From: an uncultured Chloroflexia bacterium
GTDB taxonomy: Bacteria > Chloroflexota > Chloroflexia > QHBQ01 > JADMIH01
Direction of reading: 5' to 3'
DNA: 64,000 nucleotides
Assembly (NCBI GenBank): GCA_963797095.1
Contig: CAWCNY010000003.1
Span: 704,001 to 768,000 of the forward strand
Below are positions 2,866-28,094 of this stretch, piece by piece (the stretch's first letter is position 1; each line of letters begins with the position of its first letter). The position numbers and the translations under genes are program-made. Under the pieces are notes generated by a model. The model saw nothing but the letters and a program-made list of their open reading frames with translations, searched no databases and was not told the DNA's origin.

Positions 2866-2938
2866 CGAGGTGTGTCCTCCTTAATTCCTGTTTCCGGCGT
2901 CAGACGGCAGACCGTTAGCCATCGCCATCCGGCGCAAT

Positions 2939-7931: not shown

Positions 7932-10673
7932 ATGGATAGTACTTCCACTTCATTCGGCCAATGGCTCAGAAAAACGCGTAAAGCCCAGGGCATAACCCAG
8001 GAAGAGCTCGCGTCACAAATCGGCTGTGCCTTCGAGACAATTCGGAAGATCGAGGCAGGAAGCAGGCGCCCATCGCGCCAGATGGCCGAGCTAATCGCGC
8101 GCAAGCTTGGCATAGCTGAGCGGGACCTACCCGAATTCGCCGCCTGGGCAAGAGCCGATTCAAACAGGCAGCACGCGCCTGCTCCTATCGAACACAATGA
8201 TCAGGGCACAGGCACGTCCCCACATCTCACCCCTCATCCCTCACGTTTCACGTCCAGCGGCATCCCCTCCCCGCCAACCCCGTTCATCGGTCGCCAGGAC
8301 GAAGTACAGGCCGTTTGCCATCTCCTCGAAGGCGAGCGCACGCGCCTCGTCACCCTCTTGGGTCCACCCGGCATAGGCAAGACCCGCCTCGCCATTGAGG
8401 TCGCCCGCACCTGCAAACAAGACTTCGAACACGGCACGTTCTTTGCAGAGATGGCCTCCATTTCAACCCATGAACTATTCATCCCAACCCTCGCCGCCGC
8501 CATTGGCATCAAGGGCAGGGGTGGCCCCGACGGCGTGAGCGACCCCCACCGTATCATCTACGACCACCTGTGCGGGCGTCGTGCCCTCCTCGTGCTCGAC
8601 AATATGGAGCACATCCTCCCCGAAGCCGCTAACGAAGTGATCGACCTGCTAGATGCCTGTCCCCACCTCAGAATCCTCGCCACCAGCAGAGAACCCCTCC
8701 ACATTTACGGCGAACGCGAGTACGATGTGCCTCCCCTCACCAACGCCCAGGTCGACCCGGACCCTGATGCGAAGTCCCCCAACCTCGCGCGCCCACCCTC
8801 GTACTATGAACAATACGAGGCCGTGCAGCTTTTCCTCCAGCGCGCACACGATGTCGATCCCAATCTGACCCTCACCGAAAACCACGCCTCCTACATAGCC
8901 CGCATCTGCCATCAACTGGATGATTTGCCCCTCGCCATTGAGCTAGCAGCCGCCCAGTGCAAAGTGCTGACACCCAAAGTATTGCTAGCCCGCCTCTCCA
9001 AAAAGCTCGCCTTGCTAACACGAGGCGCGAACGACCTTCCTGATCGCCAGCAGACCCTCTTTGGAGCCATAGATTGGAGCTACAAACTCCTCACCGAGAG
9101 AGAACGCAAACTCTTCAGGCGCTTGAGCGTCTTCAAAGGGGGCGCATCCCTCGAAGCAATAGAGGCTATATGTGCCCTGCCGGGCGAGCAAGGCTCTGAT
9201 CTACTGAACTCAATTAGCGCCCTCGTAGACAAGAGCCTTCTAAGACGTGAAACAGATGACGAAGGCGAGCCACGCTTCTATATGCTCCTGACAATCGGAG
9301 AATATGCCGCCGGTCGCCTGAACGAAAGCGACGAAGCAGCAACTATACGCGAGCGTCACGCAGCCTACTACACCGCCCTCGCCGAGCACGCCGAATCTGC
9401 CCTCACAAGCGCCAGGCGCGAAACCTGGCTCAGCATCCTCGACGCCGAGCTATACAACCTCCGCGCCGCCATGCGATGGGCATTGCAATCCGACACCGAC
9501 AACCAGGCAAGCGCCAGGCCCATCCAGGCCCTCCAGGTCGCCGGGGCGCTCCACTGGTTCTGGTTCCTGCGCGGGCGCAGTATTGAAGGCCGCGACTGGC
9601 TTGAGAAATCACTTGCCGCCGCCCACAACCAAAACACCTACGAACACAACAACACCAAACCAATCCTCGCCAGGGCGCTTGACGCGGCGGGCAGGCTTGC
9701 CCTCATGCAAAGCGATTTCGATAGCGTCCTTCCCCTCCTCGAACAGGGCGTGGCTCTCTGGCGTGATATTGGCGACAAGCGCGGGCTGGCCTACGCCCTC
9801 ACCAACCTGGGCGTTGCCATCGTCTACCTGGGCCGTCAGGATGGCTCCGCAGGCACGGCCCTTATCGAAGAAGCCGCCGCCATCTTCAAAGATCTGAAAG
9901 ATAACTGGGGCCTCGCTTTCGCCCTCGATTTCATGGGCGACGCCATCGCCCTCCTCGGCGGCAGCGACGAACGGGTAGCCAGGCACAAATTGCAAAGCCT
10001 TAACCTCTACCGGGACCTCGAGGACAGCTGGGGTATCGCCTCCCTCCTCAGCGACCTCGGCTACACGGCCCTCCGCCAGGACGATTTCAACAGAGCGCGC
10101 CAGTACCTCGAAGAGGCCCTCGAAGTAGCGCGCATCGTAGGTGACAAGCGCTATATCGCCTTCGCCGTCGGTGGCCTGGCCGAGGTTACCTGGCACATGG
10201 GTAACCTCGTTGAAACGCACAAACTCTTCACCGAGAGCCTGGAACTCCACCGCGAATTGGGCGAGCGCCTCGGCGAGGCAACCGCCCTCCGCAACCTCGG
10301 CCTTCTCGCCCATACCGAAGGCAAAGTATACGAAGCGAGCAAACTCTTCAGGCAAAGCCTTAAGATCGCCCAGGAGGTCGGCAACAAGCAAAACCTGGCC
10401 CTCATGCTGGGTGCTGCTGCCGGGCTGATCGGGGCGGTCGGCAAGACCAGGGAGGCCGCCCGTCTGCTCGGCGCATCAGATACCCTACGCGAATCGAGCG
10501 GCGGTCTCCTCCCCCCCACCGACCGCATCCAGCGGACCTATACCTACGAAACCCTCCGCTCTCTACTGGGCGACTCCAGCCTCGAAGAGGAAATGGCGAA
10601 TGGCAAAGCTACTCCTCTGGAGCGAAGTCTACAACTAGTTGAATCCGGCCTCCTGTCTATCTACACAGATTAA
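7932..10673 (+). CDS. XRE-HTH / NB-ARC (STAND) ATPase / TPR transcriptional regulator
   Basis: FGQWLRK..TQEELA..IRKIEAGSRRPS; Walker A GPPGIGKT; LLVLDNMEH; LPLAIELAAA; C-terminal TPRs. The ORF opens at 7890. Confidence 0.92.
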   Translation: MDSTSTSFGQWLRKTRKAQGITQEELASQIGCAFETIRKIEAGSRRPSRQMAELIARKLGIAERDLPEFAAWARADSNRQHAPAPIEHNDQGTGTSPHLTPHPSRFTSSGIPSPPTPFIGRQDEVQAVCHLLEGERTRLVTLLGPPGIGKTRLAIEVARTCKQDFEHGTFFAEMASISTHELFIPTLAAAIGIKGRGGPDGVSDPHRIIYDHLCGRRALLVLDNMEHILPEAANEVIDLLDACPHLRILATSREPLHIYGEREYDVPPLTNAQVDPDPDAKSPNLARPPSYYEQYEAVQLFLQRAHDVDPNLTLTENHASYIARICHQLDDLPLAIELAAAQCKVLTPKVLLARLSKKLALLTRGANDLPDRQQTLFGAIDWSYKLLTERERKLFRRLSVFKGGASLEAIEAICALPGEQGSDLLNSISALVDKSLLRRETDDEGEPRFYMLLTIGEYAAGRLNESDEAATIRERHAAYYTALAEHAESALTSARRETWLSILDAELYNLRAAMRWALQSDTDNQASARPIQALQVAGALHWFWFLRGRSIEGRDWLEKSLAAAHNQNTYEHNNTKPILARALDAAGRLALMQSDFDSVLPLLEQGVALWRDIGDKRGLAYALTNLGVAIVYLGRQDGSAGTALIEEAAAIFKDLKDNWGLAFALDFMGDAIALLGGSDERVARHKLQSLNLYRDLEDSWGIASLLSDLGYTALRQDDFNRARQYLEEALEVARIVGDKRYIAFAVGGLAEVTWHMGNLVETHKLFTESLELHRELGERLGEATALRNLGLLAHTEGKVYEASKLFRQSLKIAQEVGNKQNLALMLGAAAGLIGAVGKTREAARLLGASDTLRESSGGLLPPTDRIQRTYTYETLRSLLGDSSLEEEMANGKATPLERSLQLVESGLLSIYTD

Positions 10674-10728
10674 TCTCTGACAGGAAAAAAGCTATCTTAA
10701 ACGGGCTGGACCTGCCCCCGCTTCATTT

Positions 10729-10747
10729 TGTGACACTTCTAGTGACG
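10729..10747 (-). promoter_or_regulatory. Putative operator CGTCACTAGAAGTGTCACA (copy 3), upstream of the protease-precursor operon
   Basis: Reverse complement matches the 7776 box at 17 of 19 positions. Confidence 0.55.
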
Positions 10748-10822
10748 GTAAATCCACTTGTATATCCCATAGAATGTCTGTAGAGTAATAGACACTCTAG
10801 TTCGCTCCGCGGCGCGTGAGAG

Positions 10823-12478
10823 ATGGGTAAGTATAAAGTCGATACCGCCATTCACAGTCCTACTGACACTGTAGCCTACCACCAACAAGATACCAGCCAT
10901 TGGTGCGCCTCAGCCTGCGCGCTCATGGTGCTCCATACTCTTGGCGTGACACGTTCGGCGGGCTTCCCGCTCGACCAAAAGCGTGTGCGCATGGTAGCAC
11001 AAAACAGCGCCAGGTCCGACCCTACTTATCAATGGGTCGCGGCCCCCGATGGCCTGACGGCAGCTCTCAACTACTTCTGCGAGCGCAGCGATGTGGCCCT
11101 CCCAGATAAGCAAGGCGCAACCAGGCGCTGGGAGTTGGTGGCCGCCGACACCGAGGAAGAGGTCTCCCGCTACATAGTCTGGACCCTCTGGCACTACCGC
11201 AGCCCGGCCATCGCCCTCGTCTTTGGTATGCAGCACTGGCTGGTCGTCGGCGGGTGCGTTACCAGCGCCCCACCTAAAGGCCCCGACGACACAGGCTACG
11301 ACATAATTGGCTTCCACCTCAGCGACCCCTGGCCCCCCATTCCTCGTGAGCTTGCCCGCAACGACCACTTCCAACACATGGACCGCCGCGAACCGACCGG
11401 CAGCTTCGTCGCCATAGACGGCTGCGGCAGCGGCTGGCAAGGAGACCCCAACAGCGACGTCCTGGGCGGGCGTGGCGTAGCCCTTCGCTACGTCTCTTAT
11501 AACGACTGGCGCGTCCGCGATCATAGCACCCCCGACCGCAGACGTCATACCGGCTACATGACCGGCATCCCTCCCACCCTCAAGCTAACCACCAGGCGCG
11601 GCAAGCCCGACATCCCGGTCCGCTCGCGCTGGGTCGGCAAATTCCTCGCCATCTGCGACCCCGTAACCACCACACAATCCCGCCGCACCACCGCAACAAG
11701 CGAACCCGCCGAGAGGTTCCTGACAGGTCTCCCAACCACCCCCCAGGCCCCCAAAGGCAATCCACAGAGCCTTCAACAGAACAAAGGACTCCTCTTGCGG
11801 CAAATATCACCCGCCGAAGCTATCGAGGTCGCCACACAAGCCCTGAGCAAAGAAAGTGCCTATTTGGAGCAGCCCCTGCAAGCCCATACAACCACACACG
11901 ATGGGGCTAAACAAGTCGATTTGCAGCAAGATCGGTTGCCATCAAACGCGGCACAGGCCGGAGAGCCTCTGCTAGTCGAATGGCTCGACGAACCTGGCAC
12001 CTACCACCTGGAATCGGCTTACTACATAATCCCTTTCACCTCGCATGGAGCGCAACACACTGCCGTACGCATAGCGGCCCGCATGCCCTTCTGGCTAAAA
12101 GATGCGCGCGAGGAACAAGAGGAGAAAAGCAAACTCTTTCTGGGTTTCAATATGCTTGCGCAAAACAGCCGCAATAATCACGAGGCGCGGCAGGCTTCCG
12201 CGATCATGGGCGCAGACAGAGCGCGCACCATCATAACGGGCGGCTCTTTCAGAGGTACACAAGGAGAGCGTATCGCCGTGCCGAACACCTACACAGGCAC
12301 GGGTAGAGCGGTCTGGAAGCCCTGCATCGAATCGTTCGATCCCTACTGTCCCTTCTACGAATTCGCGATCCAGGCGGCAGAAAATAACAGTAATCGTAGC
12401 GAGCCTGCGTACTTGTACGTTCGGGCCTTTGACGGGAAGGTATTCACCCACCTGACCGAACACTTCGGCGGCGCATGA
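10823..12478 (+). CDS. Papain-fold (C39-like) cysteine peptidase with C-terminal accessory domain; candidate RiPP leader peptidase 1
   Basis: YHQQDTSHWCASAC (Gln..Cys), QHWLVV (His), LSDPWP (Asp). The C-terminal YYIIPF..VWKPC..PFYEF domain is shared with 20351-21001. Confidence 0.75.
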   Translation: MGKYKVDTAIHSPTDTVAYHQQDTSHWCASACALMVLHTLGVTRSAGFPLDQKRVRMVAQNSARSDPTYQWVAAPDGLTAALNYFCERSDVALPDKQGATRRWELVAADTEEEVSRYIVWTLWHYRSPAIALVFGMQHWLVVGGCVTSAPPKGPDDTGYDIIGFHLSDPWPPIPRELARNDHFQHMDRREPTGSFVAIDGCGSGWQGDPNSDVLGGRGVALRYVSYNDWRVRDHSTPDRRRHTGYMTGIPPTLKLTTRRGKPDIPVRSRWVGKFLAICDPVTTTQSRRTTATSEPAERFLTGLPTTPQAPKGNPQSLQQNKGLLLRQISPAEAIEVATQALSKESAYLEQPLQAHTTTHDGAKQVDLQQDRLPSNAAQAGEPLLVEWLDEPGTYHLESAYYIIPFTSHGAQHTAVRIAARMPFWLKDAREEQEEKSKLFLGFNMLAQNSRNNHEARQASAIMGADRARTIITGGSFRGTQGERIAVPNTYTGTGRAVWKPCIESFDPYCPFYEFAIQAAENNSNRSEPAYLYVRAFDGKVFTHLTEHFGGA

Positions 12479-12551
12479 CCGGACCGCAAAACATGGCGGC
12501 TTGTGTTTCGCGCTCCCAGGTCACAGAGTTCAAATCATTGAGGAGGATGAC

Positions 12552-13019
12552 ATGGCACAGGATTGGATACAGAACAAGTTGGTAAGCGATATAGAGGACG
12601 GCCTATGGGGCGAGCGACTTCCCAAGAACCTGGTAGCGGTCTGGGGCTTCCCCGCCAACTCAGGACGCGAAGAATACGACCGCCTTTATCTATCCCTTAA
12701 TTTCAACGAGTACATCGAGTTCCCCCACAACGGCGTAGTCCACGTGGAGGACGCGGGTGGGCCTGACAACCCTTTCAGCGGTTCGATGGTCTGGCTGAGG
12801 CATGATACCCCCGTAGACCACGTGCGCATCGACGCCGTTGACCTCCAGCGCGGCTTCCTGCAAGGCGGAATAGCAGGCTCCCTCATGGGCAACGCCCAGA
12901 ACATGACTGCCAACAACGCCAACGCCCTGGCTGGAGTAGCTGCCGGTGGCGGCACTCTCGTATGCACAGGTGGCGGCACGCTCGTCTGCACAGCAGGCGG
13001 CCCCGGCACAGACGGCTAA
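12552..13019 (+). CDS. RiPP precursor 1: ~130-aa leader plus repeated core (GGGTLVCT)2
   Basis: AGGAGG RBS at 12541. Leader is homologous to 17154-17618. 24-nt tandem repeat at 12945-12992 differs only at synonymous sites. Confidence 0.8.
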   Translation: MAQDWIQNKLVSDIEDGLWGERLPKNLVAVWGFPANSGREEYDRLYLSLNFNEYIEFPHNGVVHVEDAGGPDNPFSGSMVWLRHDTPVDHVRIDAVDLQRGFLQGGIAGSLMGNAQNMTANNANALAGVAAGGGTLVCTGGGTLVCTAGGPGTDG

Positions 13020-13039
13020 CCCACACCAGGCCGAAAACG

Positions 13040-13135
13040 CATTCAGGGGGTGTCACCCCCGCCGAGTGGTTGGGATGTCTCCCAACTCTCCCCTTTCCCC
13101 ACCTTACGGGGAAAGGGGTCAGGGGTGACGGGCAA
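13040..13135. repeat. REP-like GC-rich palindromic element between convergent genes
   Basis: CAGGGGGTGTCACCCCCG..TTGGGATGTCTCCCAA..CCCTTTCCCC/GGGGAAAGGG. Related to 15636, 28106 and 56080. Confidence 0.6.
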
Positions 13136-13188
13136 ACGCCCATCTCCCCATCTATGTCTATGCCAGGAGACCTATCCCTGAAACCCCT

Positions 13189-15594
13189 TCAGGGCACTCT
13201 ACCCCATGCTTTCGGCTCAACAAGAAGTACCGAAGGCACCTGCGGGTGTGCCAACCTCAAATAGAAGTGCCCTATCCCTGCTACCCCAAGCATCAGGCCC
13301 GGAGCCTGAGCATTCGGCCTGCCTCCCGTCCCGCACGCCCACCACCCATTCGCCTTATACCTGCGCGTCCCTTCCTCCCCTACCTCTTGAGCCAGGCTCC
13401 CTAGAGCCGCCCTTTCGCCATCACCCATCACACCACCAAGCGCGGCATGCCCCAATATGGTCGCGTTACCCGCCAGCCCGTGACACAGGGAATAATTACT
13501 CCCCCTCATCGCCAGGTCGCTCCGAACCGCATGTTCCGTCGTGCCGATAGCGATCCGCGCCTCCTCCCGGCGGGCCTCTTCCCCGGTCAACTCATAAGCG
13601 CGTAACCGCGACAGCGCAATCCCCGGCGCGCCATGACACCAGTACGTCATATAAACGAGAGCATCCCCTTCCCGGCCCCTCCCCCGCGACGGCCCTGTCT
13701 CCCGGAAATCAGGCCAGTTTCCCAACCTGCAATTCAACCACCCTTCCTCGTACCTGAAAGCGCCAAGCGCGGCCTCTCGGTATTGCCCATCCCCCGTCGC
13801 ATCCCACAATTCCAGCAGAGCGTACCCTATCCCCGCCGCCCCATGTGAAAACCCCGTAAGCGGCGCGGCCACCTTGCTCCCCACGCTCGGCCACGACAGC
13901 GCTCCCGACCTCTTATGCACCCGCGCCGAAGCCACCAACTCCTCGCCCAGCCGAACAGCGTAATCCAGGAGAAAGGGCGCGCCTGTAACCGACATAAGCG
14001 CCAAACACCCCACTATACCCCCGGCACTCCCCGTCAGCAGGTCGTACTCGTGCCCTGGGTGATCCTCCGAGGCACAGCGCCGCGCAATCTCGATGCCCGC
14101 CTCCAACATCTCTGCCTCACCAAGCAGCAGACCCGCCCTCCCCGCACCAAGCGCGATTCCCAGCCACCCCGTGTACAAGCCGGGTCGCGCCGCGGGCTTA
14201 AAAGCCTCCGCCTTATAGTAAGCATGGCGAAACGCCCCCAGCGCGCTTCGCCGCGCCTCCTCGTCGCCCGTCAACGCCGCGTATTCCGCCAGGAAAAGCC
14301 CAACACCAGCCGTGCCCGTATACAGATCGGGTCCAAGCGTGCTCCACTCCTCACGCCGCCCGCTGATCTCCGTCCCCTTCCTCTCATACAACACCTCGGT
14401 GCCGAGCCAGTTGCACATCCCCTCGTACCACACCGCGTCCGCCACAAGCTGATCCGCTATCGTGGATTCGTTCGAATTTATACCCGATCCAGACCGAGCA
14501 ATCTCGCCGATGCCGGCCCTTTTACCCCCAACCCCACGTCTCTCGCCCACACTTTTCGCGATTCGGCCCTCGTCAAACTGGAATGTGTAATTCCCCTCAG
14601 AACCCGCACCAAGATACGGCTGTTCGAGCGAGATACCCGCCTCATTGAAGCGATCAACCACCGCCCGAAGCCGGTCCTCAATCGAATGTGCGCCCTCCTC
14701 ATAAGCCCGGATAAGCCCATCCGCCACCAGCCCACACCTGTGCAGGCCGAAGCTATCCCCATCGCCTGGGTCTTCAGCAAGGCCCAACCCCGGTGCCAGC
14801 ATCAGAGTAAAAGCGGGCACAACACGCTGCATCTCTCCGTACAGGCTCGGGTAAATCTCCTCAAGCAGCGATGCCACCCTCCGGTAATGCCCCCGCCGAA
14901 TATACAGCACCCCTGCATCACACCGCTCGTACCTCTCGGGGTCATTCAGCACCTTCAGCCTGAACGGCACCTTTGCCCTATTCAAAGCTTCAGTACACAG
15001 TCGCATCAAGCCCGCCGCTCCCTCAGGCGTCACGTGCCAGTAAAAGCGCACCAGTTCCCCGCCACTCTCCTGAGAGCCATCATCCGGCGCGTCCAGGTCG
15101 AGATTCCCCACCGCCATATAGAAACCGGGCGACACAGCAGGAAGCTCCTTGCCAAACCGCAACAGCAGACCTCGTCCCCCCTCACCCTTCCTTCGGTAGC
15201 TCCCTTCCCCCGCCACCAGCAACAACCCCGCCCGTCCGGCAGCCACCAGCCCCGGCCCCAACCCCTCCAGGTCCACCTCCTCCCACCCATCGGCCCAGTA
15301 CCCCTGCCCGCTATTCGCTTCCGACAGCCTCTCGACATATGGAGCCTGCCCCCCCAATTTCCCGGCCCCCTCGCCCTCGCGCACAGGGATAGCCGACCCC
15401 GCACAATAGAAATGGCTGTAGAGGCGTGATTGAAGCGTATATTGAAGGAAACTGCGTGCCGTCCTCGGCGTGATCTCTCGCTCGATCCGGGGCAGCAATC
15501 GAGGCGAGCGCTTACCGAACCACGAAAAGACGGTGGACGAGTGTATATGCACAGCGCCAACAGCGCCGCTCAACTGCATCTCGTAATTGCTCAT
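13189..15594 (-). CDS. HopA1-like (LanY-type lyase) / LanC cyclase fusion
   Basis: N-terminal half: SPGFYMAVG, VRFYWHV, PFRLKVL..YERCDAGVLY, LAPGLGLAEDP..SFGLHRC (HopA1 family). C-terminal half: DLYTGTAG, GFSHGAAG, WCHGAPG, LCHGLAG, GLMLGVAGIG (LanC catalytic His and Zn ligands). The ORF opens at 15636. Confidence 0.88.
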   Translation of the reverse strand: MSNYEMQLSGAVGAVHIHSSTVFSWFGKRSPRLLPRIEREITPRTARSFLQYTLQSRLYSHFYCAGSAIPVREGEGAGKLGGQAPYVERLSEANSGQGYWADGWEEVDLEGLGPGLVAAGRAGLLLVAGEGSYRRKGEGGRGLLLRFGKELPAVSPGFYMAVGNLDLDAPDDGSQESGGELVRFYWHVTPEGAAGLMRLCTEALNRAKVPFRLKVLNDPERYERCDAGVLYIRRGHYRRVASLLEEIYPSLYGEMQRVVPAFTLMLAPGLGLAEDPGDGDSFGLHRCGLVADGLIRAYEEGAHSIEDRLRAVVDRFNEAGISLEQPYLGAGSEGNYTFQFDEGRIAKSVGERRGVGGKRAGIGEIARSGSGINSNESTIADQLVADAVWYEGMCNWLGTEVLYERKGTEISGRREEWSTLGPDLYTGTAGVGLFLAEYAALTGDEEARRSALGAFRHAYYKAEAFKPAARPGLYTGWLGIALGAGRAGLLLGEAEMLEAGIEIARRCASEDHPGHEYDLLTGSAGGIVGCLALMSVTGAPFLLDYAVRLGEELVASARVHKRSGALSWPSVGSKVAAPLTGFSHGAAGIGYALLELWDATGDGQYREAALGAFRYEEGWLNCRLGNWPDFRETGPSRGRGREGDALVYMTYWCHGAPGIALSRLRAYELTGEEARREEARIAIGTTEHAVRSDLAMRGSNYSLCHGLAGNATILGHAALGGVMGDGERAALGSLAQEVGEEGTRRYKANGWWACGTGGRPNAQAPGLMLGVAGIGHFYLRLAHPQVPSVLLVEPKAWGRVP

Positions 15595-15635
15595 AATTGG
15601 TGAATTATACAAAATCGCGGGAGCAAATATGAGCA

Positions 15636-15690
15636 AAGAAGGAGTGCAGGGGCGAAGTCCCAGCCGGGGCCTCAGGTGTCCCTACCCTTC
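15636..15690. repeat. REP-like element (GGAGTGCAGGGGCGAAGTCC..GGTGTCCCT)
   Basis: Similar to 56085-56140 and 28106-28170. Confidence 0.5.
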
Positions 15691-15764
15691 CATATCTCCC
15701 TAACATCTCTCACGAGTACGCACCTGCGCCTGCGCAGCAATTCTACCCCAATAAACCACCCGAA

Positions 15765-15824
15765 AGTACACCCCAAAACCTGTCCAGTTTTGCCCCATCA
15801 ACGTCACTTAGTATATAGAGGCAA
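15765..15824 (+). repeat. 60-bp dispersed intergenic repeat, copy 1
   Basis: AGTACACCCCAAAACCTGTCCAGTTTTGCCCCATCAA...; 49/60 identical to 41529-41588 by manual alignment. Confidence 0.75.
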
Positions 15825-15889
15825 ACCGACCATCCACCACCCGAATCTCAACAAAAAGCCGGAAGACTACCCGATGGTCTACATTATTG

Positions 15890-17119
15890 TCAGGTCTGAA
15901 CTTGCTGCCAGAGCATTCTGCGCGTACCAAGCGGAATCCCCAACAACGCAATCGAAGCCTCTTCCGGGCGCTGGAGGATATTGAACGCAAGCTGTAACAA
16001 CACAACAATATTACCCGTCAGCAAGGCAGATACCTGCCCCTGCTCATAGGCCGTCTGCACCAGCCGGGCAGTGGCATACCGCACCGACCGGATCAGAAAC
16101 GCATCATGCAACCCAGGGTCGGTCAACCCACTCCCGCTCACATAAGCCGACCAGAAAGCCCGTATAGCCGGTCTCATCTTATCCAATGGATATCGCGCCA
16201 GGTCCAGAAACCGGTCGGGCGGGTCCTGCCCCGTAACAGGGATCGAAAGGAGCCAGTATGTCAGATACTCACCAAAAAACGAGCCGACATCCCAGCAGGG
16301 ATCGCCCAGCCTCGACAACTCCCAATCCACTATCTTCACGCCCGAAGACCAATCATAAGCGACCCCACCGCCCCCTCCGCAGGTCGGGCGATGCGCAAGT
16401 ATATTATTCCACTTGATATCGCAATGTATAGACGTATGCGAAATAGCCGCTTCCGCCCCTCAGCCCCTACCCACTCCTGCCTCAGACCATCAAGCAGCGC
16501 GCAGAACTCCGGAAATCTCTGCACGATCTTCACCGTCTGCACATTAGCATTCGAGAGCAACCCAAGCTCCCGCAAATAAGGCCTGTGCACAGACAATATC
16601 CAGTGTGGGGACCCACCATAAAACGAACGCTCAAGCACCCTGAACAGATTCAGGGTTATCTTCCAGCGTGATCGAATGAAGCGCCGCCAGCGCCCGCCCG
16701 ACCTCCCGCGCCAACCCGACCGAGAACTTGCCGGTGCGCGTGTGCCGCTCGCCAAGCGTCTCAGCCTCCCTCACCAGATCAAGAATTAGGGTGCTATCCG
16801 CCTCCTCAAAACCAAAGAAGCGAGGCAGAAAGCGAGCCACACCCGTCCCTGCCCCGCTCCCAAGCAGAGCCTCATAAACCGCCGCCTCATGCCCCACAGT
16901 AGCAGACCGCTCCGCCCCCACTCCCTGCTTCAGCAGATAAGAAGGCCCCAACTCGCTCTCAACCCGGAAGTTAGTATTGCGAAACGAAGCGTCGGAGATG
17001 CGAAGGGCATCCGCAACCAACACTCGCGATGATAGAAGTTCGTTCTGGAGGAGATAGTTGAGAATGATCCATTGTGCAGGCCGAGCCAATCTTTCGTCAG
17101 ACCTCAGCGACTCAAACAT
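15890..17119 (-). pseudogene. APH-family Ser/Thr kinase (LanK type) with two compensating frameshifts (real or assembly error)
   Basis: RNTNFRV..YLLKQ..HEAAVY..ALAALH (frame A); PHWILSVHRP (frame B); IHCDIKWNNIL..KIVDWE..GDPCWDVG (frame A again). The shifts near 16640 and 16460 both fall in G/C runs. Confidence 0.82.
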
Positions 17120-17153
17120 TGCACTATCTCGTTGTGCGGATAAGTACCATACG

Positions 17154-17618
17154 TCACGTCTTGGCCTTACCACCCTTATTGGGCTTTTCGCCACATCCAC
17201 AGTTAGGCTTGGTGCTACATCCACCATGAACCGACCCTGCAAGCAACGCTTCTACTAGACCAGTCTCGCCGAGGCTAGCTGCAAGATCAGCATGAGGCAG
17301 ATAGAGTGTTGCTAGATCACCCACCAGAAAAGTCTGTACGCGGTCAACCTCAGTTGCACCGCCAAACCACACAATGGCAGGCTCGAGGGCCTCAGGATCA
17401 CCCTGCTTCTGGTGGTCCTTACTTACTTGAAAGACAAACTCAACCACGTCCTTCCCGAATCTTAGGTACTCATCGAAAGCTAGCGATCGATATAAGCGCC
17501 AAGTGTCTTTCGCCTCATCTTTCTGCAGATAACCACTTATTGGAACCAAATTCTTACCTAGGTTCCTGATCTCCTCAATAAGTGGATTACTGCGCAACCC
17601 CTCTTTCGTGTCGGCCAT
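17154..17618 (-). CDS. RiPP precursor 2: shared large leader plus core GG-CSTKPNCGCGEKPNKGGKAKT
   Basis: GGAGGAG RBS before ATG 17618. KNLV..G(Y/F)..RLY.SL.F.EY..F..VW..T.VD.V..FL.G motifs are shared with precursor 1. Confidence 0.8.
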   Translation of the reverse strand: MADTKEGLRSNPLIEEIRNLGKNLVPISGYLQKDEAKDTWRLYRSLAFDEYLRFGKDVVEFVFQVSKDHQKQGDPEALEPAIVWFGGATEVDRVQTFLVGDLATLYLPHADLAASLGETGLVEALLAGSVHGGCSTKPNCGCGEKPNKGGKAKT

Positions 17619-17829
17619 CTTCTCCTCCATTCTGTCAATCGAGACAACTGTTACAGCACACCATTGAGAGCGAATGGGCCAATGTATGGGCTCAGCAACG
17701 GACCAAAAGGCACAGTGATAACGACGTTCAGATAATGCCAATCATACGTGATATGAAAGCGTCTGGACCCACCATATTGTACATCTGACTTTTCACTATG
17801 TCAACACTCAGGTGTTATTGGGGTGCATT

Positions 17830-19336
17830 TCAGATAGGGGGCGAGTTGTAGACCAGGTGCCAGCACTGATCGAAGCGTGAACTGAGGATTGCCGTCCGCA
17901 CGGGCAACAGCTTTTCGGCACCCAGGCGGCTCCAACGCATACCTGCTCCGGCGAAGCGAGCCTTGAACTGCTTGCCTGCGCTCTCCACCGTGCCTGACCC
18001 AATCGGATAGCCCGCTTCGCGCATCTGGGAGTAGTTCATACGATGTGCGTTGTTGCTGAAGTAACCCGCTTCCTCCTTTAGCTGTTCAGCTTGTTTTGGT
18101 TGCCGCTCTGCCAAGTCAGCTAGCACCTCTGCCAAGTAGCCTGCTCCACCCTCAAATAGCAGCTTTTTCTGTGCCTCTAGCCATTGTTTGGAGGCGCCCG
18201 CATCGCCTTCGTGTGCTGCTAAAGATGCTGAGGCCAGGTGCTGCGCTCCATGATACCAGTCCACCAGTTGAGCACTGTCATACAAATGCTCCTCAGCTAG
18301 GTTCCAAATCCAGGCGGCACCGTCTGCTACTACCAGCGTGTGATCAGCCCTCTCCCACCCTCTGTGGTGTGCCTCTCCCCATAGCATCTGTCCGAAAACG
18401 GTGGGTCCGCCTAGATGGGCTACATAGCTTTGGTTAGTAGCACGGGCACGACTATCTTCGCTTCCTTCCTCCTCAAACTCAGTGGCCAATGCAGGCTCCG
18501 TTTTATCAGCCTCCATCTCCATAGCTTCAATGTCGAACACGCAGCCCACCTTCAACTCTTTCCAACCTTCCTCACGAATATGGATCATAGCGCCATCCAT
18601 ACTCGCACCCATCTTTGTGAATTGCCCAGGCACCCCAGGCACCCCAGGCACCCCAGGCACCCCAGGCACCCCAGGCGCAAATGCGTTGGAACCTTCTGCC
18701 TTAGAACCTTCCCTCTCGACCTGTACCTGTATATGTACATCGTTGGCGGAGTTGGCTGCCACCCACCGTGCAGCCTCCACCTCTCCAAAGCTACTACCCC
18801 ACTCCTGGCACAGCCTCCAAACAGTGCTGTCGGAGATGGACACACCTCCTATCTGCTCAAGTATTTGTGCCCCTCTCTCGAAGTCCACCAATCCTCCCAG
18901 CCATACTGACTGCTTGATTATCCATTCGCTCCAATGCACGTCCCACAAGTGCAACTGCTCATCCAGGGGGGAAAAGCCCCTTACGGCAGTAGGAGCAATA
19001 GTAGTAGGAGCGTTGTACTTTGATGGTGCCTATCCTGCTTTCCACAGGGTGAGCCTTCTCTCCCTTGTAGCGCATCTCCCTCCCACACTCAGGACAAGGT
19101 GGGCCAGGTACATTCTGAGTGGAGACCTCTTGCTGTGCCAGCACCGCCTGTGCCATCTGCTCACTCAGTTGCCTGCGCAGCTTCACTACCGCCTCCTCGA
19201 TCTGAGCTAGTGTGGGTTGGGGGGTGTCGGCTGACCAGCCAATCAGTTGTTCAATTGCTTGCTCTGCCTGTGCCATAAGCTCTGCCTTCATCTGTTCTCG
19301 GGTACGTTTCATCAGGAGCCTCCATGCTACGCGCAA
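17830..19336 (-). CDS. ISKra4-family transposase in two frames (18959-19336 and 17830-18954)
   Basis: CPECG and CSYC Zn motifs. LFPPG* shifts to F(F)PLDEQL at TTTTCCCCCC. SMDG, DGAAWIW, VDWYH, PIGSGTVES (DDE). Confidence 0.88.
18625..18676. repeat. 9-bp tandem repeat (CCCAGGCAC)5.8 encoding PGV repeats inside the transposase
   Basis: Read directly. Confidence 0.9.
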
Positions 19337-19485
19337 GATCCTCCTATTATCTCAAACCTTGCCCCCTATCTGAAATGCACCCGTGTTATTGATCCTACAC
19401 TATCTCTGTAACACATTCTGGTGTCTTGACAACAATCCTTTATGTTGCAAGGATAAGGCAATTACTGGTCAACAATTAGGGGGTA

Positions 19486-20280
19486 GTGAAAATGCCCTTC
19501 GATCTCAAGTATCATTGCCAGAGTTGCCCAACATTCTGCGGGCTAGCATGTGTGCAGATGCTAGCATACTCTCTTGACCAAGTCTTGCAGATTCAGCAAG
19601 CAGATTGGAAAGGATGTTCGGAGTCAGATGGATGGGGTGCACACCCCACCAATCTGCAACGCTACCTAAATGGTTTGCCGAACAAAGCGACTTCTATCCC
19701 AAACCTTACTTTCTATCTTGTGATATCCGACACCAAGAGCGCAATATCACACTGGGTTGCATATACACTTCGCAAGAAAAGGCCGGCACCTATGGTGCTT
19801 GTTGAGGGAGACGATCACTGGGTATTGGTCAAGGAATACACGCTGAAAGAAGAACCGGCCGCCGATTCACCCACCACCAAGTACAAGATCGACCGCTTCT
19901 TCATAGCGGATCCTTCCGTAAACTACGATCCCGTATCGGGTGAATGTCTAGAATGCCTTGCGAATGAGCTAAATGCCCTTACATTGCATGATCCCGACGA
20001 TATATGCGGAAATGCTGAAAGTTATACTTGCGGTTCTAAGCATTGCAAGATCGATCGGGGCCGTGGGATAAGGAGAACGAAGTATAGCACTTGGCGGAAT
20101 CACTGGCTGCATCAATTCCCAGGTCCGATATCTATTTGGTCGCATAAATATCTCGCTGTTATTGCGCTGGACGAAGAGAACGATCCTCTGAATGGGGATG
20201 ATTTTACAAGCCACACACTAGCAGGCGAAGAATGCGTAAATGGAGCATGGACTGATGAGGATTGTCCTGAGTTTGATTGA
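19486..20280 (+). CDS. Papain-fold (C39-like) cysteine peptidase 2, catalytic domain
   Basis: YHCQSCPTFCGLAC, DHWVLV, IADPS, GRG..Y.TW, KYLAV, collinear with the N-terminal half of 10823-12478. Confidence 0.72.
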   Translation: MKMPFDLKYHCQSCPTFCGLACVQMLAYSLDQVLQIQQADWKGCSESDGWGAHPTNLQRYLNGLPNKATSIPNLTFYLVISDTKSAISHWVAYTLRKKRPAPMVLVEGDDHWVLVKEYTLKEEPAADSPTTKYKIDRFFIADPSVNYDPVSGECLECLANELNALTLHDPDDICGNAESYTCGSKHCKIDRGRGIRRTKYSTWRNHWLHQFPGPISIWSHKYLAVIALDEENDPLNGDDFTSHTLAGEECVNGAWTDEDCPEFD

Positions 20281-20350
20281 TGACCCACTCTCAAAATACT
20301 GAAGCCTTCATTTGACCGAATGTTAGAGTTCTACACTATAGCAAGATGAG

Positions 20351-21001
20351 GTGCCTACTGTGGCTGCAGATAATAAATTCCAACTAGATGACGATACCCT
20401 CCGCAACAAGGCCCAGCAAGCATTACAGGAAGAAGCGGAGGTCATACCTAATTCCACCTCCTCGTGGGACAAATTGCTTGCTAATGCATCAGTTGCTCCA
20501 TCCGATCTCATTCTGCAAGTTGAGGATCTGAAGGAAGGTGAGCAGGGTTTTTGCTATTATTTGGTTCCCATCGTCAATCCCAATGGCTCTATACCCGTTG
20601 TTATACTCTTGGACGCAACCACTGGTGAGTTGCTTGAATCTACAGGCGTCGAAGAGAGTGTACAAACCGCCGATGGCCTCAACGCAATCATTCTAGTGCC
20701 TGCTCAACAAATAAAGGATCAGCTTCTATCGATCGGTTTTGTCACAATAAATGGGCAACGAAGGCCCATAAAGCAAGTTCAAATTGACCAACGTTCAGTA
20801 TGGCGGCATACTAGGCTTACGCCTCTGCCATATTTCCCTCGCTATAGGATGCACGTCACATTCAGCGATGGTCTCATTCAAGAACTGAGTACGTTCTACG
20901 TTCCAATATCGGGCCTTTCACTGCCAACTCCTCCACCTGGTGGGCTAGGAGAGGTCCCGGACTTAACACCATATACGAACTATCCAGGTATTAAACAATA
21001 A
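20351..21001 (+). CDS. Stand-alone homolog of the C-terminal domain of peptidase 1
   Basis: VEDL..YYLVPI, VWRHT..PYFPRY, FYV versus VEWL..YYIIPF, VWKPC..PYCPFY, LYV in 10823-12478. Confidence 0.65.
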   Translation: MPTVAADNKFQLDDDTLRNKAQQALQEEAEVIPNSTSSWDKLLANASVAPSDLILQVEDLKEGEQGFCYYLVPIVNPNGSIPVVILLDATTGELLESTGVEESVQTADGLNAIILVPAQQIKDQLLSIGFVTINGQRRPIKQVQIDQRSVWRHTRLTPLPYFPRYRMHVTFSDGLIQELSTFYVPISGLSLPTPPPGGLGEVPDLTPYTNYPGIKQ

Positions 21002-21008
21002 TCTGCAA

Positions 21009-23949
21009 CTATAACAACCCGTGCTCCATCGCAAATCGAATAGCCGCAGTACGCGACGTGACATCGATCTTATTGTAGATTGAGTAGAGGTGCGAACGTA
21101 CTGTATTCGGGCTTAGAAATAGCCGAGCAGCTACCTGTGCATTGTTGAGCCCAAGCGCAATCAATCGTAACAACTCAACCTCGCGTTTGCTGAGGCCGTT
21201 AGGATATGTTGGATCTTTAGTCAGTAGGTTTGTAGGTTGCGTCGCGTCTATTGGTAGCGCCATCGGATCTACAGGAGCTTCCACTGCGAAGGCCATAGAC
21301 ACTATTCGATCCAACGACAGGGCTTGACCCTCGGCCAAATACAAATTAAACTCATCATCTCCTAATCGCTTTCGAGTCTGAGCCACCATTTGCTCATATT
21401 CTGCAACGTCAACTGTCGTGGCGTTCACAAAGCTAATCCCCTCAGGGCGAATGGATAGCGGTGCGGCAAGCAATCGTGCAGCCAATTGGGGATCACCACC
21501 ATCAAAAGCCACCCCAGCAATGCTAGCCAGGCACAGGGCAGCCTGCCGTTTGCGCCCCAACTCCTGGTAAATTGCTGCTGCTTCTTGGTGTAGCGCCAGT
21601 GTACTATCATACCGTCTCTGCCGGTACGTTGCATATCCAATATGACGGGTTATTAAGGCCAACCGGCCCCTGTCACCCAGAGCCTGATATAGAGCGAAAC
21701 TTTCCCGATAGAACGCCTCAGCCTTGTCGTATGCCCCCTCAAGGTGCGCCACCATTCCATAGCCAAAAAGAACGTGCCCCAGATAATACCTGTCGCCTAC
21801 CTCACGCAGCAAGGGTATCGCTTCATCGAAACTACTACGGGCCAGACTGAAATCGCGAAGCTGAACGGCATCTAGGCCAACCGTCCCCAGCATCGAAGCA
21901 ACATTCCACTTGTCGCCCAGTTGCCTGTACAAGCCGATACTTTCCTTATCAAGGGACACAGATCCATTTACATCCCCCAGGCGGTATGGGATGCTGGACG
22001 CAAGGTCCAAGCCATGCGCCAACCCCCAAAGATCACCTGTTTCACGAAAGAGTGCTAACCCTTCGTCGGCCAGTTCATACAGCGAGCGTTCCAACGTATG
22101 CGATCCAACTCGCGAGAGTAATATCAGTGCATAAGCAAGTAGCTTCTTCTCACCCAGTTCCCGCAGTATTGCAACGCTTTCCTGTAGCGCAGCACGCGAA
22201 CCATCCAGGTCAAAATGCTGTTCGGCTAACTTAGCGGACGCATAAAGCGCTTTGGCAAGCCCAACACTTCGCTCGTTGTGGTCAATTTTCTCCAGTACGC
22301 TACCCAGCCAACGCTGCCCCTCAACAAAATGCCCCCTGAAATACCAATACCACCCCAGCGCCCCAGCCAACCGCAACCCGACGTTGGCATCCCCACCATC
22401 ACTCAGGCTCCAGCCCAGGGTCGCGCGGATATTGTCCAGGTCGGCATCCAGCTTGCGCAGCCAGGGATCGCGGCCACCCGTCGTCATATGAGGCTCGGCC
22501 TCCTCTGCCAGCGCCAGCATAGCCAGCGCGTGGGCGCGGCGCACCTCGTTCTCTTCCCCACTCTCGACCAGCCGCTCAAGCCCGTACTCGCGGATCGTTT
22601 CGAGCATACTGAAGCGCGCTTCCCCGTCCGGCCCTTCCTCCTGCTTCAACAAACTCTTATCCAGCAGCGATGCGACCAGGTCCAGCGTGTCCAGGCCTGA
22701 AGGCACGCGCCCTCCTCCCTCGCTCGCCACCCGCTCCGCAGCGTCCAGCGTAAAGCCCCCCACGAACACCGACAATCGTCTGTACGCCGCCTTCTCCGCC
22801 TCGTCCAGCAGGTTGTAGCTCCAATCGATAGCTCCCCGCAGCGTGCGCTGGCGAGGCGGCAGATTCTGCGCACCTCCCGTCAGCACCCCAAGCCTGCTGT
22901 CGAGCCGGGCCAGCAGCGCTTGCGGCCTCAACACATTGATCCTCGCGGCGGCAAGCTCTATCGCAAGCGGCAGCCCATCCAGTTTCCGGCAAATATCGGC
23001 AATCACAACCGCCGTCGCGTCATCCACAACCAGGTCAAGACGAGACCGCGCGGGCACGCTGCACAAACAGGTCGGTGGCCTCCGATTGCGACAGGCTTTC
23101 CGCCGTGGTCTGCGCGTCGCGTGGAGGCACAGGCAGCGGCGGCACTCGCCAAATCTGCTCGCCATAAACATGCAGCGCGCTCCGGCTAGTCGTTACCACC
23201 TGCACATCAACCGCGGCAGTGAGAAGCTCTGCCAGGTGCTCCTCCGGCTCGTCGATCTGCTCCATATTGTCGAGCACCAGCAGCATCCGCTTGTCCCGCA
23301 GAAAATCGGCCAGCACCTCGTTCGCGGGCCTCCCCGTCGCCTCCTTCACCCCCAGTGCCGACGCCACAGCCTGCGCAATCCCTTTGCCATCCACCAGGGC
23401 AGCCAGCGGCACAAAAAACACCCCGTCCTCGTAATCGCCGCCCCTGAGCAAACGCCGCCCAGCCTCTATGCTCAGGCGCGTCTTCCCTATGCCCGGCGGG
23501 CCAAGCAGCGTAAGCAACCTCACGCCCGGCTTGCTCAGCAGATCCACCACCCGCTCCACATCCGCTTCCCGCCCGACAAAAGTCGTGAGTTGCGCCGGTA
23601 AGTTCGATGGGGGTTGGGCGCGCACCCGCCACGGGGCTTCCGGGTCGAAGTCCGGGTCGGCGGCTGCCCCACTTCCCGGGTAACCCTCGTCGGTGTCCAG
23701 GTCGGAAATAGCAAACAGCACAAAAGCCTTGTGCTCGTTGCGGGCGACCGCGAAAATGTGCGCTACCCTTTCGGCCATCCGCCGCGTGGGCCTCGCCGCG
23801 CCCGCTTCCCACTCCTGCACCAGCTCCGGCGTGCAATCTACCCCCACGCGCTCCGCAAGCTCTTCCGGTGAAATTCCGCGCGCTTCCCGGCGGCTTCGTA
23901 GCCACAACCCGAATAGCGTGCGTGCCTGTTGTTCTTTTTCAGTCACCAT
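21009..23949 (-). pseudogene. XRE-HTH / NB-ARC / TPR / LuxR-HTH regulator, frameshifted near 23040
   Basis: FGLWLR, GPPGIGKT, LVLDNMEQ, LFVQRARAV, then a frame change into LDGLPLAIELAAAR, TPRs and LSKREVELL..LSPNTVRSHLYSIYNKI. Confidence 0.88.
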
Positions 23950-26722: not shown

Positions 26723-28094
26723 ATGGCCATGCTGGAAAGGAACAATCCTTCCGTTGTCGAGGCAGCAGCTTTGCGCCTTGCCCTTATAACCTCAGCCCTC
26801 GTGATCTCTATAACTGTAGCTGTCAACCTCAGCACACCGGTCTCCGCCCTCCCCTCTGTCAACTCCACAACCCCAGGCGACCCTCCTTCGCCCACCTGCG
26901 GTCCGGCCTAGCGCCTTGTATCGAGTCCCAGCCCACCCGCCTTCCCCGGTTTCTATGGCTACTCACTCTCCGGGGTTGATGCGATATCTGCAAGTGATGT
27001 CTGGGCTGTCGGCTCCCATTATTACGGCGATTTGATTAGCGGAACCTACTCAGCACCACTGGCCGAGCATTGGGATGGAAATCAGTGGAGCGTGGTGCCA
27101 CCCGCCTATACGGGCGATGGTGAAAGTGGCCTCTACGCAGTGGCCGCTATTTCGAGCAGTGATATCTGGGCTGTAGGTAATTACACCGGCCACTCTGTGT
27201 ACCAGACCCTCATAGAGCACTGAGATGGCACCTCCTGGGCCATCATCCCAAGCCCAAACGCAGGGACAGACAGCAGCAAGCTAACCGGCCTGGCTGTGGT
27301 CTCCGGCAACGATATCTGGGCCGCAGGCTCTCCCATCGAACACTGGGAGGCAGCACATGGAGCATCGTGCCAGGCCCCTACGGCCTCGCAGCTGTTGCAG
27401 CAACAGCACCCAACGATGGTTGGGGCATGGATCGGGCTCGGGTACATTGGTGGATATCCAGCACCACTCAGACCTTCAGCTCAGTGATGTTCCGCCTGGC
27501 AGCACATCCTACACCTACATCCGCTGCCTGGTATGCGCGGGCATCATCAGCGGTTACACCGACGGCACTTTTCAGCCTGCCAACAACGTCACCAGGGGCC
27601 AGCTTTCCAAAATCGTATCCAATGCCGCCGGCTTTACCGGCGACCCGGGCCAGCTCTTCGAGGACGTGCCTGTTGGCTCTACCTTCCAGGTCTACGTCAG
27701 CCGCCTCGCTTCTCGGGGCTATATCAACGGATGTCCCTGCGGCGGCGACGGCGAGTCCTGCCAGCCACCTCGTAATCTCCCCTACTTCCGCTCCAACAAC
27801 CCTGCCTCCAGGGGACAGATCACTAATATTGTCTCTAATGCAGCAAACTTGGACGACACACCAACGGGCCAGCAATTCCAGGATATCCCCTCGGGCAGCA
27901 CATACTACACGTACACCTACCGGCTGGTTGCCCGCTCTGTAATGTCAGGATACCCATGTGGACGACCCAACGAGCCATGTTCCCCGCCCGGCAACCTCCC
28001 CTACTTCCGCCCCAACGACCCCGCCGCCAGAGGCCAGACCTCAAGAATCATCTCTAATACCTTCTTCCCATCTTGCAGCACAGCCTTCAAATAA
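26723..28094 (+). pseudogene. Degraded S-layer homology (SLH) protein with beta-propeller-type DVWAVG/EHWDG repeats
   Basis: Stop codons where Trp is expected (CGPA* at 26909, IEH*DG at 27221) plus frame changes. Intact SLH repeats at 27480-28094 (ISGYTDGTFQP..TRGQLSK). Confidence 0.8.

Follow-up and report, generated by a model that had tools for sequence, protein, structure and literature searches.

What kind of product is encoded by a compact group of genes in an uncultured Chloroflexia bacterium, and can this copy of the group still operate? The DNA in question is a stretch of 64,000 nucleotides (assembly GCA_963797095.1, contig CAWCNY010000003.1, positions 704,001 to 768,000), here called the window at its full length; the genes lie between its positions 7932 and 23949. 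The initial annotation of the window proposed a hybrid lanthipeptide pathway, joining class V-type dehydration to LanC cyclization, that fits no known class. Domains, catalytic residues and gene co-occurrence uphold the combination but not the misfit: the logic of LanK, LanY and LanC is already published as class Vb (PMC11186320, PMC12291118, PMC12328550), and so the "hybrid" is class Vb and the novelty of the pathway logic, which had been left to a literature check, falls away. We consider it quite likely that these genes form a lanthipeptide cluster of class V, sub-type Vb, in which the LanY lyase and the LanC cyclase share one polypeptide, and which is probably inactive in this genome.

The enzyme at the center of the locus is encoded by one open reading frame (ORF; 13189-15594, minus strand) with strong Pfam matches to HopA1 (E 1.7e-43) and LANC_like (E 1.8e-51). 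Residues 1-360 of the fusion (14515-15594) match Pfam HopA1 and comprise the LanY part, a HopA1-like phospho-Ser/Thr lyase, and residues ~420-801 (13189-14337, stop codon included) match Pfam LANC_like and comprise the cyclase part. That a single protein carries both domains with an intact catalytic His and zinc ligands, as had been noted earlier, is borne out by these E-values and by an alignment of 20 fusion sequences, in which R183, K214, R224 and Y231 of the lyase and H584, C653/H654 and C704/H705 of LanC (motifs SHG, WCHG and LCHG) are invariant. The lyase residues are spaced by 31, 10 and 7 positions, compared to 32, 10 and 7 for R187, K219, R229 and Y236 of CaoY; these four CaoY residues are conserved, and K219, R229 and R187 are implicated by mutagenesis or modelling in the CaoY study (PMC9486802). 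The LanY part also matches the chain labelled "Lyase" of a solved structure (PDB 9dk1_B, E 5e-11; chain B of 9dk1-3), with the K...R.D...Y stretch aligned.

In NCBIfam, the LanC part is matched best by LanM, in its C-terminal cyclase part (240 bits, under the cut-off), and a PDB sequence search returns LicM2 at E 2e-17. The same search returns LANCL1 and LANCL2 chains (E 5e-7 to 4.5e-6), which could suggest that the domain, like the eukaryotic LanCL proteins, adds an external thiol such as glutathione to dehydroalanine (Dha) or dehydrobutyrine (Dhb) and forms no ring. This is very improbable, for the best matches are the lanthipeptide cyclase domains just named, and the co-encoded substrates contain 10% Cys exactly in their variable tails, which fits intramolecular rings. 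The NCBIfam models for LanL (118 bits, cut-off 650) and LanKC (72 bits, cut-off 575) cover only fusion residues ~419-784, and a Pfam scan finds no kinase domain in the fusion.

The kinase is instead the product of an adjacent gene (15890-17119, minus strand). It is a LanK-type enzyme of the APH fold, as previously annotated, with the motifs HCDIKWNN and IVDWE, and all catalytic motifs are present across the three pieces into which the gene is now broken by two frame changes. The fragments themselves match APH at E 0.003 and LxmK (NF038156) at 32 and 53 bits, compared to a cut-off of 315; the intact orthologous kinase of a related locus (L022) matches APH at 4.8e-10, and an intact ortholog weakly matches chain A ("Kinase") of PDB 9dk1-3. 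Across 46 kinases of the family, there is no variation in the motifs Lys, Glu, H-x-D-x4-N and D-W-E.

Two homologous precursor genes accompany these enzymes, as the initial annotation had recognized from their Cys/Thr/Ser tails. Precursor A (12552-13019, plus strand; 155 residues) and precursor B (17154-17630, minus strand; 158 residues from the first ATG) are 31% identical (E 3e-8). Each has a predicted beta-domain leader followed by a short helix, F-L-Q-G-G-I in A and F-L-V-G-D-L in B; the core of A consists of two tandem G-G-G-T-L-V-C-T units, and the tail of B contains Cys, Ser/Thr and Lys. Precursor B is the first gene of a precursor-kinase-fusion operon, a position that agrees with the conserved gene order described below.

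Class V is defined by a stand-alone LanK (PF01636) and LanY (PF17914). Its subgroup Va lacks LanC but contains LanD and LanX; in subgroup Vb dehydration by LanK and LanY is followed by LanC cyclization, with SmoA of Streptomyces (Pei et al., JACS 2022, doi 10.1021/jacs.2c06808) as the sole characterized member, as these sources describe it (PMC11186320, PMC12291118, PMC12328550). In the window, the HopA1 lyase with its Arg/Lys/Arg/Tyr set, the adjacent APH kinase and precursors with Cys and Ser/Thr are all present, as is the LanC (PF05147) with Cys/Cys/His zinc ligands and catalytic His that distinguishes Vb. The class Vb trio of stand-alone LanK, LanY and LanC is not matched here, since LanY and LanC form one ORF, but this is a difference in architecture only. 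The Va features are absent: no LanD lies in the locus, as had been stated in the initial annotation, the sole PF02441 match of the genome sitting on another contig (C2), and only one APH match falls inside the window, leaving no LanX. The features of classes III and IV are likewise absent, as the fusion has no kinase domain.

Comparison with the known systems sharpens this placement. SmoA and SmoC share with the window an APH kinase, a HopA1 lyase, a zinc-dependent LanC for lanthionine and methyllanthionine, and the lack of LanD and LanX, and 51 of the 80 related loci considered below even have three separate enzymes; by contrast, as far as SmoA is described in citing papers, here LanY and LanC are fused, the leader is a folded beta-domain of ~95 residues, and the cores are often repeats. 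Class Va and the thioamitides (CaoK/CaoY, lexapeptide LxmK/LxmY/LxmX, pristinin SprPT/SprH3) have the LanK/LanY pair and conserved lyase residues in common with this locus, which differs in having LanC but no LanD or LanX and in a leader much longer than the ORFs of <110 residues to which the search in PMC9486802 was confined. Classes III and IV (LanKC, LanL) also proceed by phosphorylation, elimination and cyclization with lyase and cyclase on one chain, and LanL has a zinc LanC; theirs is a PF00069 kinase on the same chain with an OspF-type lyase, whereas here a separate APH kinase is paired with a HopA1 lyase. In the Nif11/NHLP precursors of ProcM-type class II systems, one synthetase serves several precursors that have a long conserved leader and very different Cys/Ser/Thr cores. 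The present leader differs in having no Pfam or NCBIfam match to those families, and its predicted fold has no PDB match. A LanY-LanC fusion, a leader of this beta-domain type, the F-L-x-G-x-I motif, the repeat precursors and a spread over more than 10 phyla are not described in the literature searched, which comprised neither Pei 2022 nor any supplementary files. The list of Pei et al. (JACS 2022) reportedly has more than 240 clusters.

Is the arrangement peculiar to this genome? A search of 5.8 billion proteins, restricted to lengths of 440-1402 amino acids, gave 264 matches among 8000 candidates scored, and both Pfam domains are present in all 120 listed matches of the 264. A scan of species-representative genomes matched at least 600 stretches, of which 477 encode relatives; 80 loci were kept. 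By their record titles these belong to Chloroflexota, Acidobacteriota, Myxococcota, Planctomycetota, Verrucomicrobiota, Gemmatimonadota and Cyanobacteriota, to Alpha-, Beta- and Gammaproteobacteria, Actinomycetota (Catellatospora, Plantactinospora, Nonomuraea, Micromonospora), Bacillota (Tumebacillus avium) and Bacteroidota (Kordia, Spirosoma, Flavobacterium), with two contigs from metagenome-assembled genomes (MAGs) of Nitrososphaeraceae, binned as deposited. The cassette family thus spans more than 10 phyla. This differs from a 2025 review that gives class V as known only from actinobacteria (PMC12328550); distant LanK/LanY pairs had already been noted in Cyanobacteria, Planctomycetes and Proteobacteria (PMC7794033), and LanK/LanY co-occurrence in diverse contexts (PMC9486802). 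Within the genus of the window, a match is found in 10 of 24 other genomes, the best 66% identical, and both split and decayed copies occur among these relatives.

The order precursor, kinase, LanY, LanC is conserved in the related loci. The C-terminal piece of the window kinase matches 74 of the 80 loci by tblastn, always just upstream and on the same strand (73 by phmmer), and leader-domain ORFs are present in 50, so that the co-occurrence for which the initial annotation had proposed a neighborhood check is indeed found. When ORFs of at least 90 amino acids are clustered, only three families occur in most loci: LanY/LanC (78), kinase (73) and precursor (51). Two further families, in 47 and 46 loci, lie entirely on the opposite strand and are read as probable antisense artefacts of the conserved genes; next come a TPR protein, in 12 loci, and an ABC exporter and an S8 subtilase, in 9 loci each. 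At L068:1490-4465, where the match is to the LanC part only, a class I LanB dehydratase (Lant_dehydr_N, E 6e-32) is present together with an ABC exporter, and the locus is therefore an ordinary class I cluster caught by the LanC motif.

LanY and LanC form one ORF in 24 of the 80 loci and adjacent, often overlapping genes (~335-356 and 420 amino acids) in 51; LanC stands alone in four loci, and the remaining one is truncated at a contig end. The fusion is thus a recurrent variant and not the defining novelty of the family. Some of the split calls in MAGs could be sequencing errors; cultured isolates provide examples of both the fused state (Tumebacillus, Catellatospora, Plantactinospora, Pseudomonas) and the split state (Undibacterium, Kordia, Spirosoma, Nonomuraea, Micromonospora). 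Among the cultured carriers are Tumebacillus avium AR23208 (L005), Catellatospora paridis (L010), Kordia periserrulae DSM 25731 (L067) and an Undibacterium strain (L074). On a quick maximum-likelihood tree of 74 LanC domains (73 loci and the window), parsimony requires 10 switches between the states, at least 4 of them forced by well-supported branches, and the states are clustered (0 of 500 shuffles gave as low a count). The tree does not follow phyla. The window pairs with locus L004, with a support of 94 by the Shimodaira-Hasegawa-like approximate likelihood ratio test (SH-aLRT). The two Nitrososphaeraceae contigs (L008 and L011) carry a kinase and a fused LanY-LanC that group inside the bacterial sequences; the presence of the cassette on contigs binned to these ammonia-oxidizing archaea could reflect gene transfer or mis-binning.

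We turn next to the precursors of the family. The AlphaFold2 model for precursor A, made with 49 aligned sequences, has a predicted local distance difference test (pLDDT) score of 80 overall and >90 for residues ~30-100, and shows six strands and then helices; the conserved part of the leader is ~95 residues long. Foldseek finds no match to this fold in the PDB at E <= 1e-3, no score of at least 0.9 is reached in the protein Atlas, and the leader has no Pfam or NCBIfam match. A hidden Markov model (HMM) built from the first matches recovers precursors A (E 9.9e-27) and B (E 2.7e-9) of the window and 56 ORFs in the 50 loci mentioned above, these 56 all upstream of the kinase and on the same strand; the best relative of precursor B is in L004 (E 2.9e-17). 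In a word-indexed search, the leader profile found at least 62 proteins, a lower bound, all unnamed and devoid of Pfam domains, and in sampled Actinomycetes the domain occurs in 3 of 301 genomes, the center genome included. After the beta-domain, the best-conserved element is the F-L-x-G-x-I-like motif, which is near-universal.

What might this motif do? For a locus of the same genus (L090), a complex was modelled from three chains, each with its own alignment: the intact kinase, fusion residues 1-400, and the precursor. The precursor scores 0.83 (0.84, 0.82 and 0.83 in separate runs), versus 0.16 for the best of three controls; in calibration, 58 of 80 solved complexes attained that mark, as did 2 of 110 mismatched pairs. 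At least 55% of contacts are common to the runs, and the partner has a pLDDT of 58. The tightest modelled contacts place precursor residues 108-119 (FLAGEI being 109-114) against kinase residues 376-385, in its conserved C-terminal helices, and residues 201 and 205. The model thus supports binding of the F-L-x-G-x-I helix to the kinase. In the published CaoA-CaoK model of class Va, the leader is likewise bound to the kinase via hydrophobic contacts (PMC9486802), so that in both models the leader sits on the kinase.

Domain matches, conserved catalytic residues and strong gene co-occurrence together argue for a pathway of kinase, lyase and LanC; the chemistry, the ring pattern and leader removal are inferred. 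The precursor would present its ~95-residue N-terminal beta-domain, followed by the F-L-x-G-x-I helix that is predicted to dock on the C-terminal helices of LanK. LanK would then phosphorylate Ser and Thr of the C-terminal core, and the LanY domain (R183, K214, R224, Y231) would eliminate phosphate to leave Dha or Dhb. At the zinc site of LanC (C653, C704 and H705, with H584 as the acid) the thiols of core Cys residues would be added to form lanthionine or methyllanthionine rings, which in precursor A would be small T-x-x-C rings, one per 8-residue repeat. The leader may finally be removed by the two lineage-specific Cys-protease-like proteins considered below.

The tails that follow the leader in the 56 related ORFs are hypervariable, from 6 to 764 residues (median 65), with 10.0% Cys (versus 0.3% in the leaders), 10.3% Thr and 13.5% Pro; every one of the 56 contains Cys, and 54 also contain Ser or Thr. 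Many consist of repeats in tandem. In its close relatives, at 67-82% identity, precursor A is matched by sequences with 3 to 7 copies of the 8-residue unit G-x-G-[TS]-x-x-C-x, of which the window has two. Leader-domain ORFs of 690-917 residues with Cys/Thr/Pro-rich unit arrays are seen in four loci (L017:5985-8579, L046:5915-8668, L044:6194-8572 and L036:5849-7921); should they be genuine, few lanthipeptide-type precursors would be longer, their lengths coming from a longest-ORF caller with start sites as called, partly on MAG contigs.

Such tails, often of many tandem Cys/Thr/Pro units, together with a leader that is confidently predicted as a folded domain and the finding that no protease or exporter family occurs in more than 9 of the 80 loci, bring up a different kind of product: thioether-stapled polypeptides that keep their folded N-terminal domain, or long, multi-ring, protein-like tails with a structural, metal-binding or surface role, to which the protease-like genes would be unrelated. 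We regard this as unlikely. The same family has many short tails of 6-40 residues, a usual length for lanthipeptide cores, and the long ORFs carry the caller and MAG uncertainty just noted. Furthermore, class V clusters and those of other peptides made by ribosomes and then modified post-translationally (RiPPs) often depend on proteases encoded elsewhere.

Whether the window copy is still expressed and active is a separate question, and here the evidence points to decay. The kinase frame changes lie near 16650 (not in a homopolymer) and near 16455-16470 (beside G runs), as located by three-frame translation, by tblastn with the intact 411-residue kinase of locus L001 (56% identity) and in the DNA itself. 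The ~67 codons between them sit in another frame, and a TGA ends the entry frame. A profile of the 46 kinases recovers the window kinase as three pieces, of which the middle one lies in the other frame; across the 6.0-Mb genome (93% complete, 8 contigs) it detects no second copy. Two further lesions are absent from the earlier annotation. The insertion sequence (IS) at 17821-19382 (1562 bp) has a UPF0236/ISKra4-like transposase in two ORFs (Pfam UPF0236 weak, E 0.0015; no strand assigned), 25-nucleotide terminal inverted repeats and a 9-bp direct target duplication at both ends; two further full copies, 100% and 96% identical, are present in the genome, besides many short related fragments. 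It occupies the divergent promoter region between precursor B and the 264-residue protein gene, and is ~190 bp upstream of the former. Regulator 2 (21009-23949, minus strand) is broken by one frameshift near 23040, where tblastn with regulator 1 puts residues 20-322 and 325-916 in different frames. Since the sole LanK is twice frameshifted, a regulator is disrupted in the same way and precursor B has an IS upstream of it, the cluster in this genome is probably inactivated.

A functional cluster, in which the frameshifts of kinase and regulator stem from faulty assembly and expression continues despite the IS, is improbable to our mind, although several observations speak for it. The kinase shifts are +1 and -1 and restore the frame, the second is beside GGGG runs, the 8-contig genome suggests a long-read assembly, the catalytic motifs are intact in all three kinase pieces, and a low-contig relative (G026) likewise has a fragmented copy. 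On the other hand, the first shift is not in a homopolymer; among the 16 APH-family matches of the genome only the window kinase has internal stops, the other 15 having none; and three independent lesions (kinase, regulator, IS) fall within 7 kb. The assembly is not generally frameshifted, because rpoB and rpoC read open, at 1168 and 1548 amino acids. Four public DNA runs, and no RNA run, came up in a search for reads; they contain 6-9% of the sampled words, and their read contigs cover essentially the IS (17.6-19.4 kb) and short pieces of relatives; the read contig in the 16622-16895 bin is a relative's, short, low-depth and at least 10% mismatched, with an extra G behind 16698 at a depth of 2.4. 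The cassette of a relative from the same taxonomic order (L089, G026:C8:94000-105000) is also decayed, with the kinase in 2 pieces, LanC in 3 and stops inside, so cassette decay is not unique to the window.

Several points weigh against the reading of the locus as an inactivated member of a class Vb family with a kinase-docking leader. The dehydration and cyclization chemistry is deduced from sequence. The public reads do not span the kinase breaks near 16650 and 16455-16470, and a local assembly error could also have produced this pattern, in which the two shifts cancel out and the second is next to G runs. The complex model used alignments built by the authors, and, as solved kinase-lyase structures (9dk1-3) exist, it may be in part a recall of them. 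Thirty of the 80 loci give no leader-domain match, so the beta-domain is not universal; 20 of these were inspected, and several have other precursors at the same spot, of two kinds: one in which the leader is short and retains no more than an F-[LF]-x-G-x-[IVL]-like motif, the other with tandem arrays of short Cys/Thr units. No accessory family occurs in more than 12 of the 80 loci. Neither an exporter nor an immunity gene was found in the locus among the Pfam-scanned ORFs of the window. The initial annotation had likewise stated that no methyltransferase or ABC exporter is present, and the Pfam scan, which took in 24 ORFs over ~1.4-33.4 kb of the window and is not exhaustive, finds none.

Two genes of the locus might account for leader removal. 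The 551-residue protein (10823-12478, plus strand) has a Cys-protease-like N-terminal region of ~230 residues and a C-terminal half with no known family; the 264-residue protein (19486-20280, plus strand), a candidate leader peptidase, is homologous to it via that N-terminal domain (24% identity, E 2e-9). They share a Q-x5-C...HW...DP pattern, of which Q12, C18, C22, H111-W112 and D142-P143 are invariant in four sequences (the two window proteins, one database homolog and that of L004), and the spacing of Q to C is reminiscent of papain. These had been annotated as two C39-like proteases. Two related Cys-protease-like proteins are indeed present, but the C39 label is rejected: neither has a Pfam match (nor, for the 551-residue protein, an NCBIfam match), PF03412 finds nothing in the whole genome, the same profile matching in 7 of 14 control genomes, and there is no significant fold match. 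For the 264-residue protein, an AlphaFold2 model has a pLDDT of 54; its three best weak fold matches are papain-like (2bu3_A at E 0.088, ZUP1), deubiquitinases rank lower, and none reaches E <= 1e-3. "Papain-like" is therefore kept only as a lead. One homolog of the 264-residue protein was found in the 5.8-billion-protein set.

The 264-residue gene is paired with one for a 216-residue protein of no known family (20351-21001, plus strand; no Pfam or NCBIfam match). In L004 a homolog of the latter (E 4e-8) follows the protease-like gene in the same order as in the window, and the layout is divergent there too, the protease-like and 216-residue-like genes facing the precursor-kinase-fusion operon. 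The possibility that the 551-residue protein is a fusion of 264- and 216-residue proteins was rejected, as the N-terminal halves are homologous but the likeness of its C-terminal half (11900-12478) to the 216-residue protein is not significant (E 0.62).

The two STAND regulators flank these genes. Regulator 1 (7932-10673, plus strand) is intact and combines HTH_XRE, a STAND/AAA NTPase and TPR (Pfam HTH_3 1.4e-12, AAA_22 4.1e-9, TPR_12 3.4e-19); regulator 2 combines HTH_XRE, NB-ARC/STAND, TPR and LuxR/GerE by Pfam on both of its ORFs. Both had been correctly identified, the frameshift in the second aside. Neither these regulators nor the proteases, which had been proposed to be dedicated ones, belong to the conserved system: the protease pair is shared by only 1 of the 80 loci (L004), and regulator 1 has homologs in 4 of the 80 and is thus lineage-specific. 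The 264- and 551-residue proteins are plausible candidates for lineage-specific leader peptidases.

The remaining features of the window are noted for completeness. A gap of ~295 nucleotides (15595-15889) separates the kinase stop from the fusion start, two genes that directly adjoin or overlap one another in most related loci. The cluster is flanked on one side by a sigma-54 gene and a sigma-54 activator (a response regulator), upstream at 1357-4318, and on the other by Big_1 and SLH proteins, the SLH-domain proteins lying at 27357-28094 and 30119-31858. A third HTH_XRE-TPR regulator lies downstream of the cluster (32016-33413).

The window copy itself matters mainly as an example of cluster decay, and it is the wider family, with its new type of precursor, that deserves follow-up. 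We tentatively suggest, at somewhat less than even confidence, that the window belongs to a large, phylum-spanning and uncharacterized branch of class V with a new precursor family, namely a beta-domain with no solved counterpart, a kinase-docking F-L-x-G-x-I helix and cores from 6 to more than 700 residues; multi-ring stapled products are possible, and no product has been described. Published mining would have missed precursors of 150-900 residues, because candidates were collected only if shorter than 110 residues (PMC9486802). If this reading of the family holds, class V(b) chemistry would not be an actinobacterial speciality but a widespread cassette of three or four genes in soil and aquatic bacteria, and its cultured carriers would include Tumebacillus, Kordia, Undibacterium, Spirosoma, Catellatospora and Micromonospora. 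The conserved F-L-x-G-x-I helix would offer a handle for genome mining and for leader-guided engineering, and the repeat cores, in which close relatives have 2-7 copies of an 8-residue ring unit, would serve as a natural experiment on the way a single set of kinase, lyase and cyclase acts on iterated substrates.

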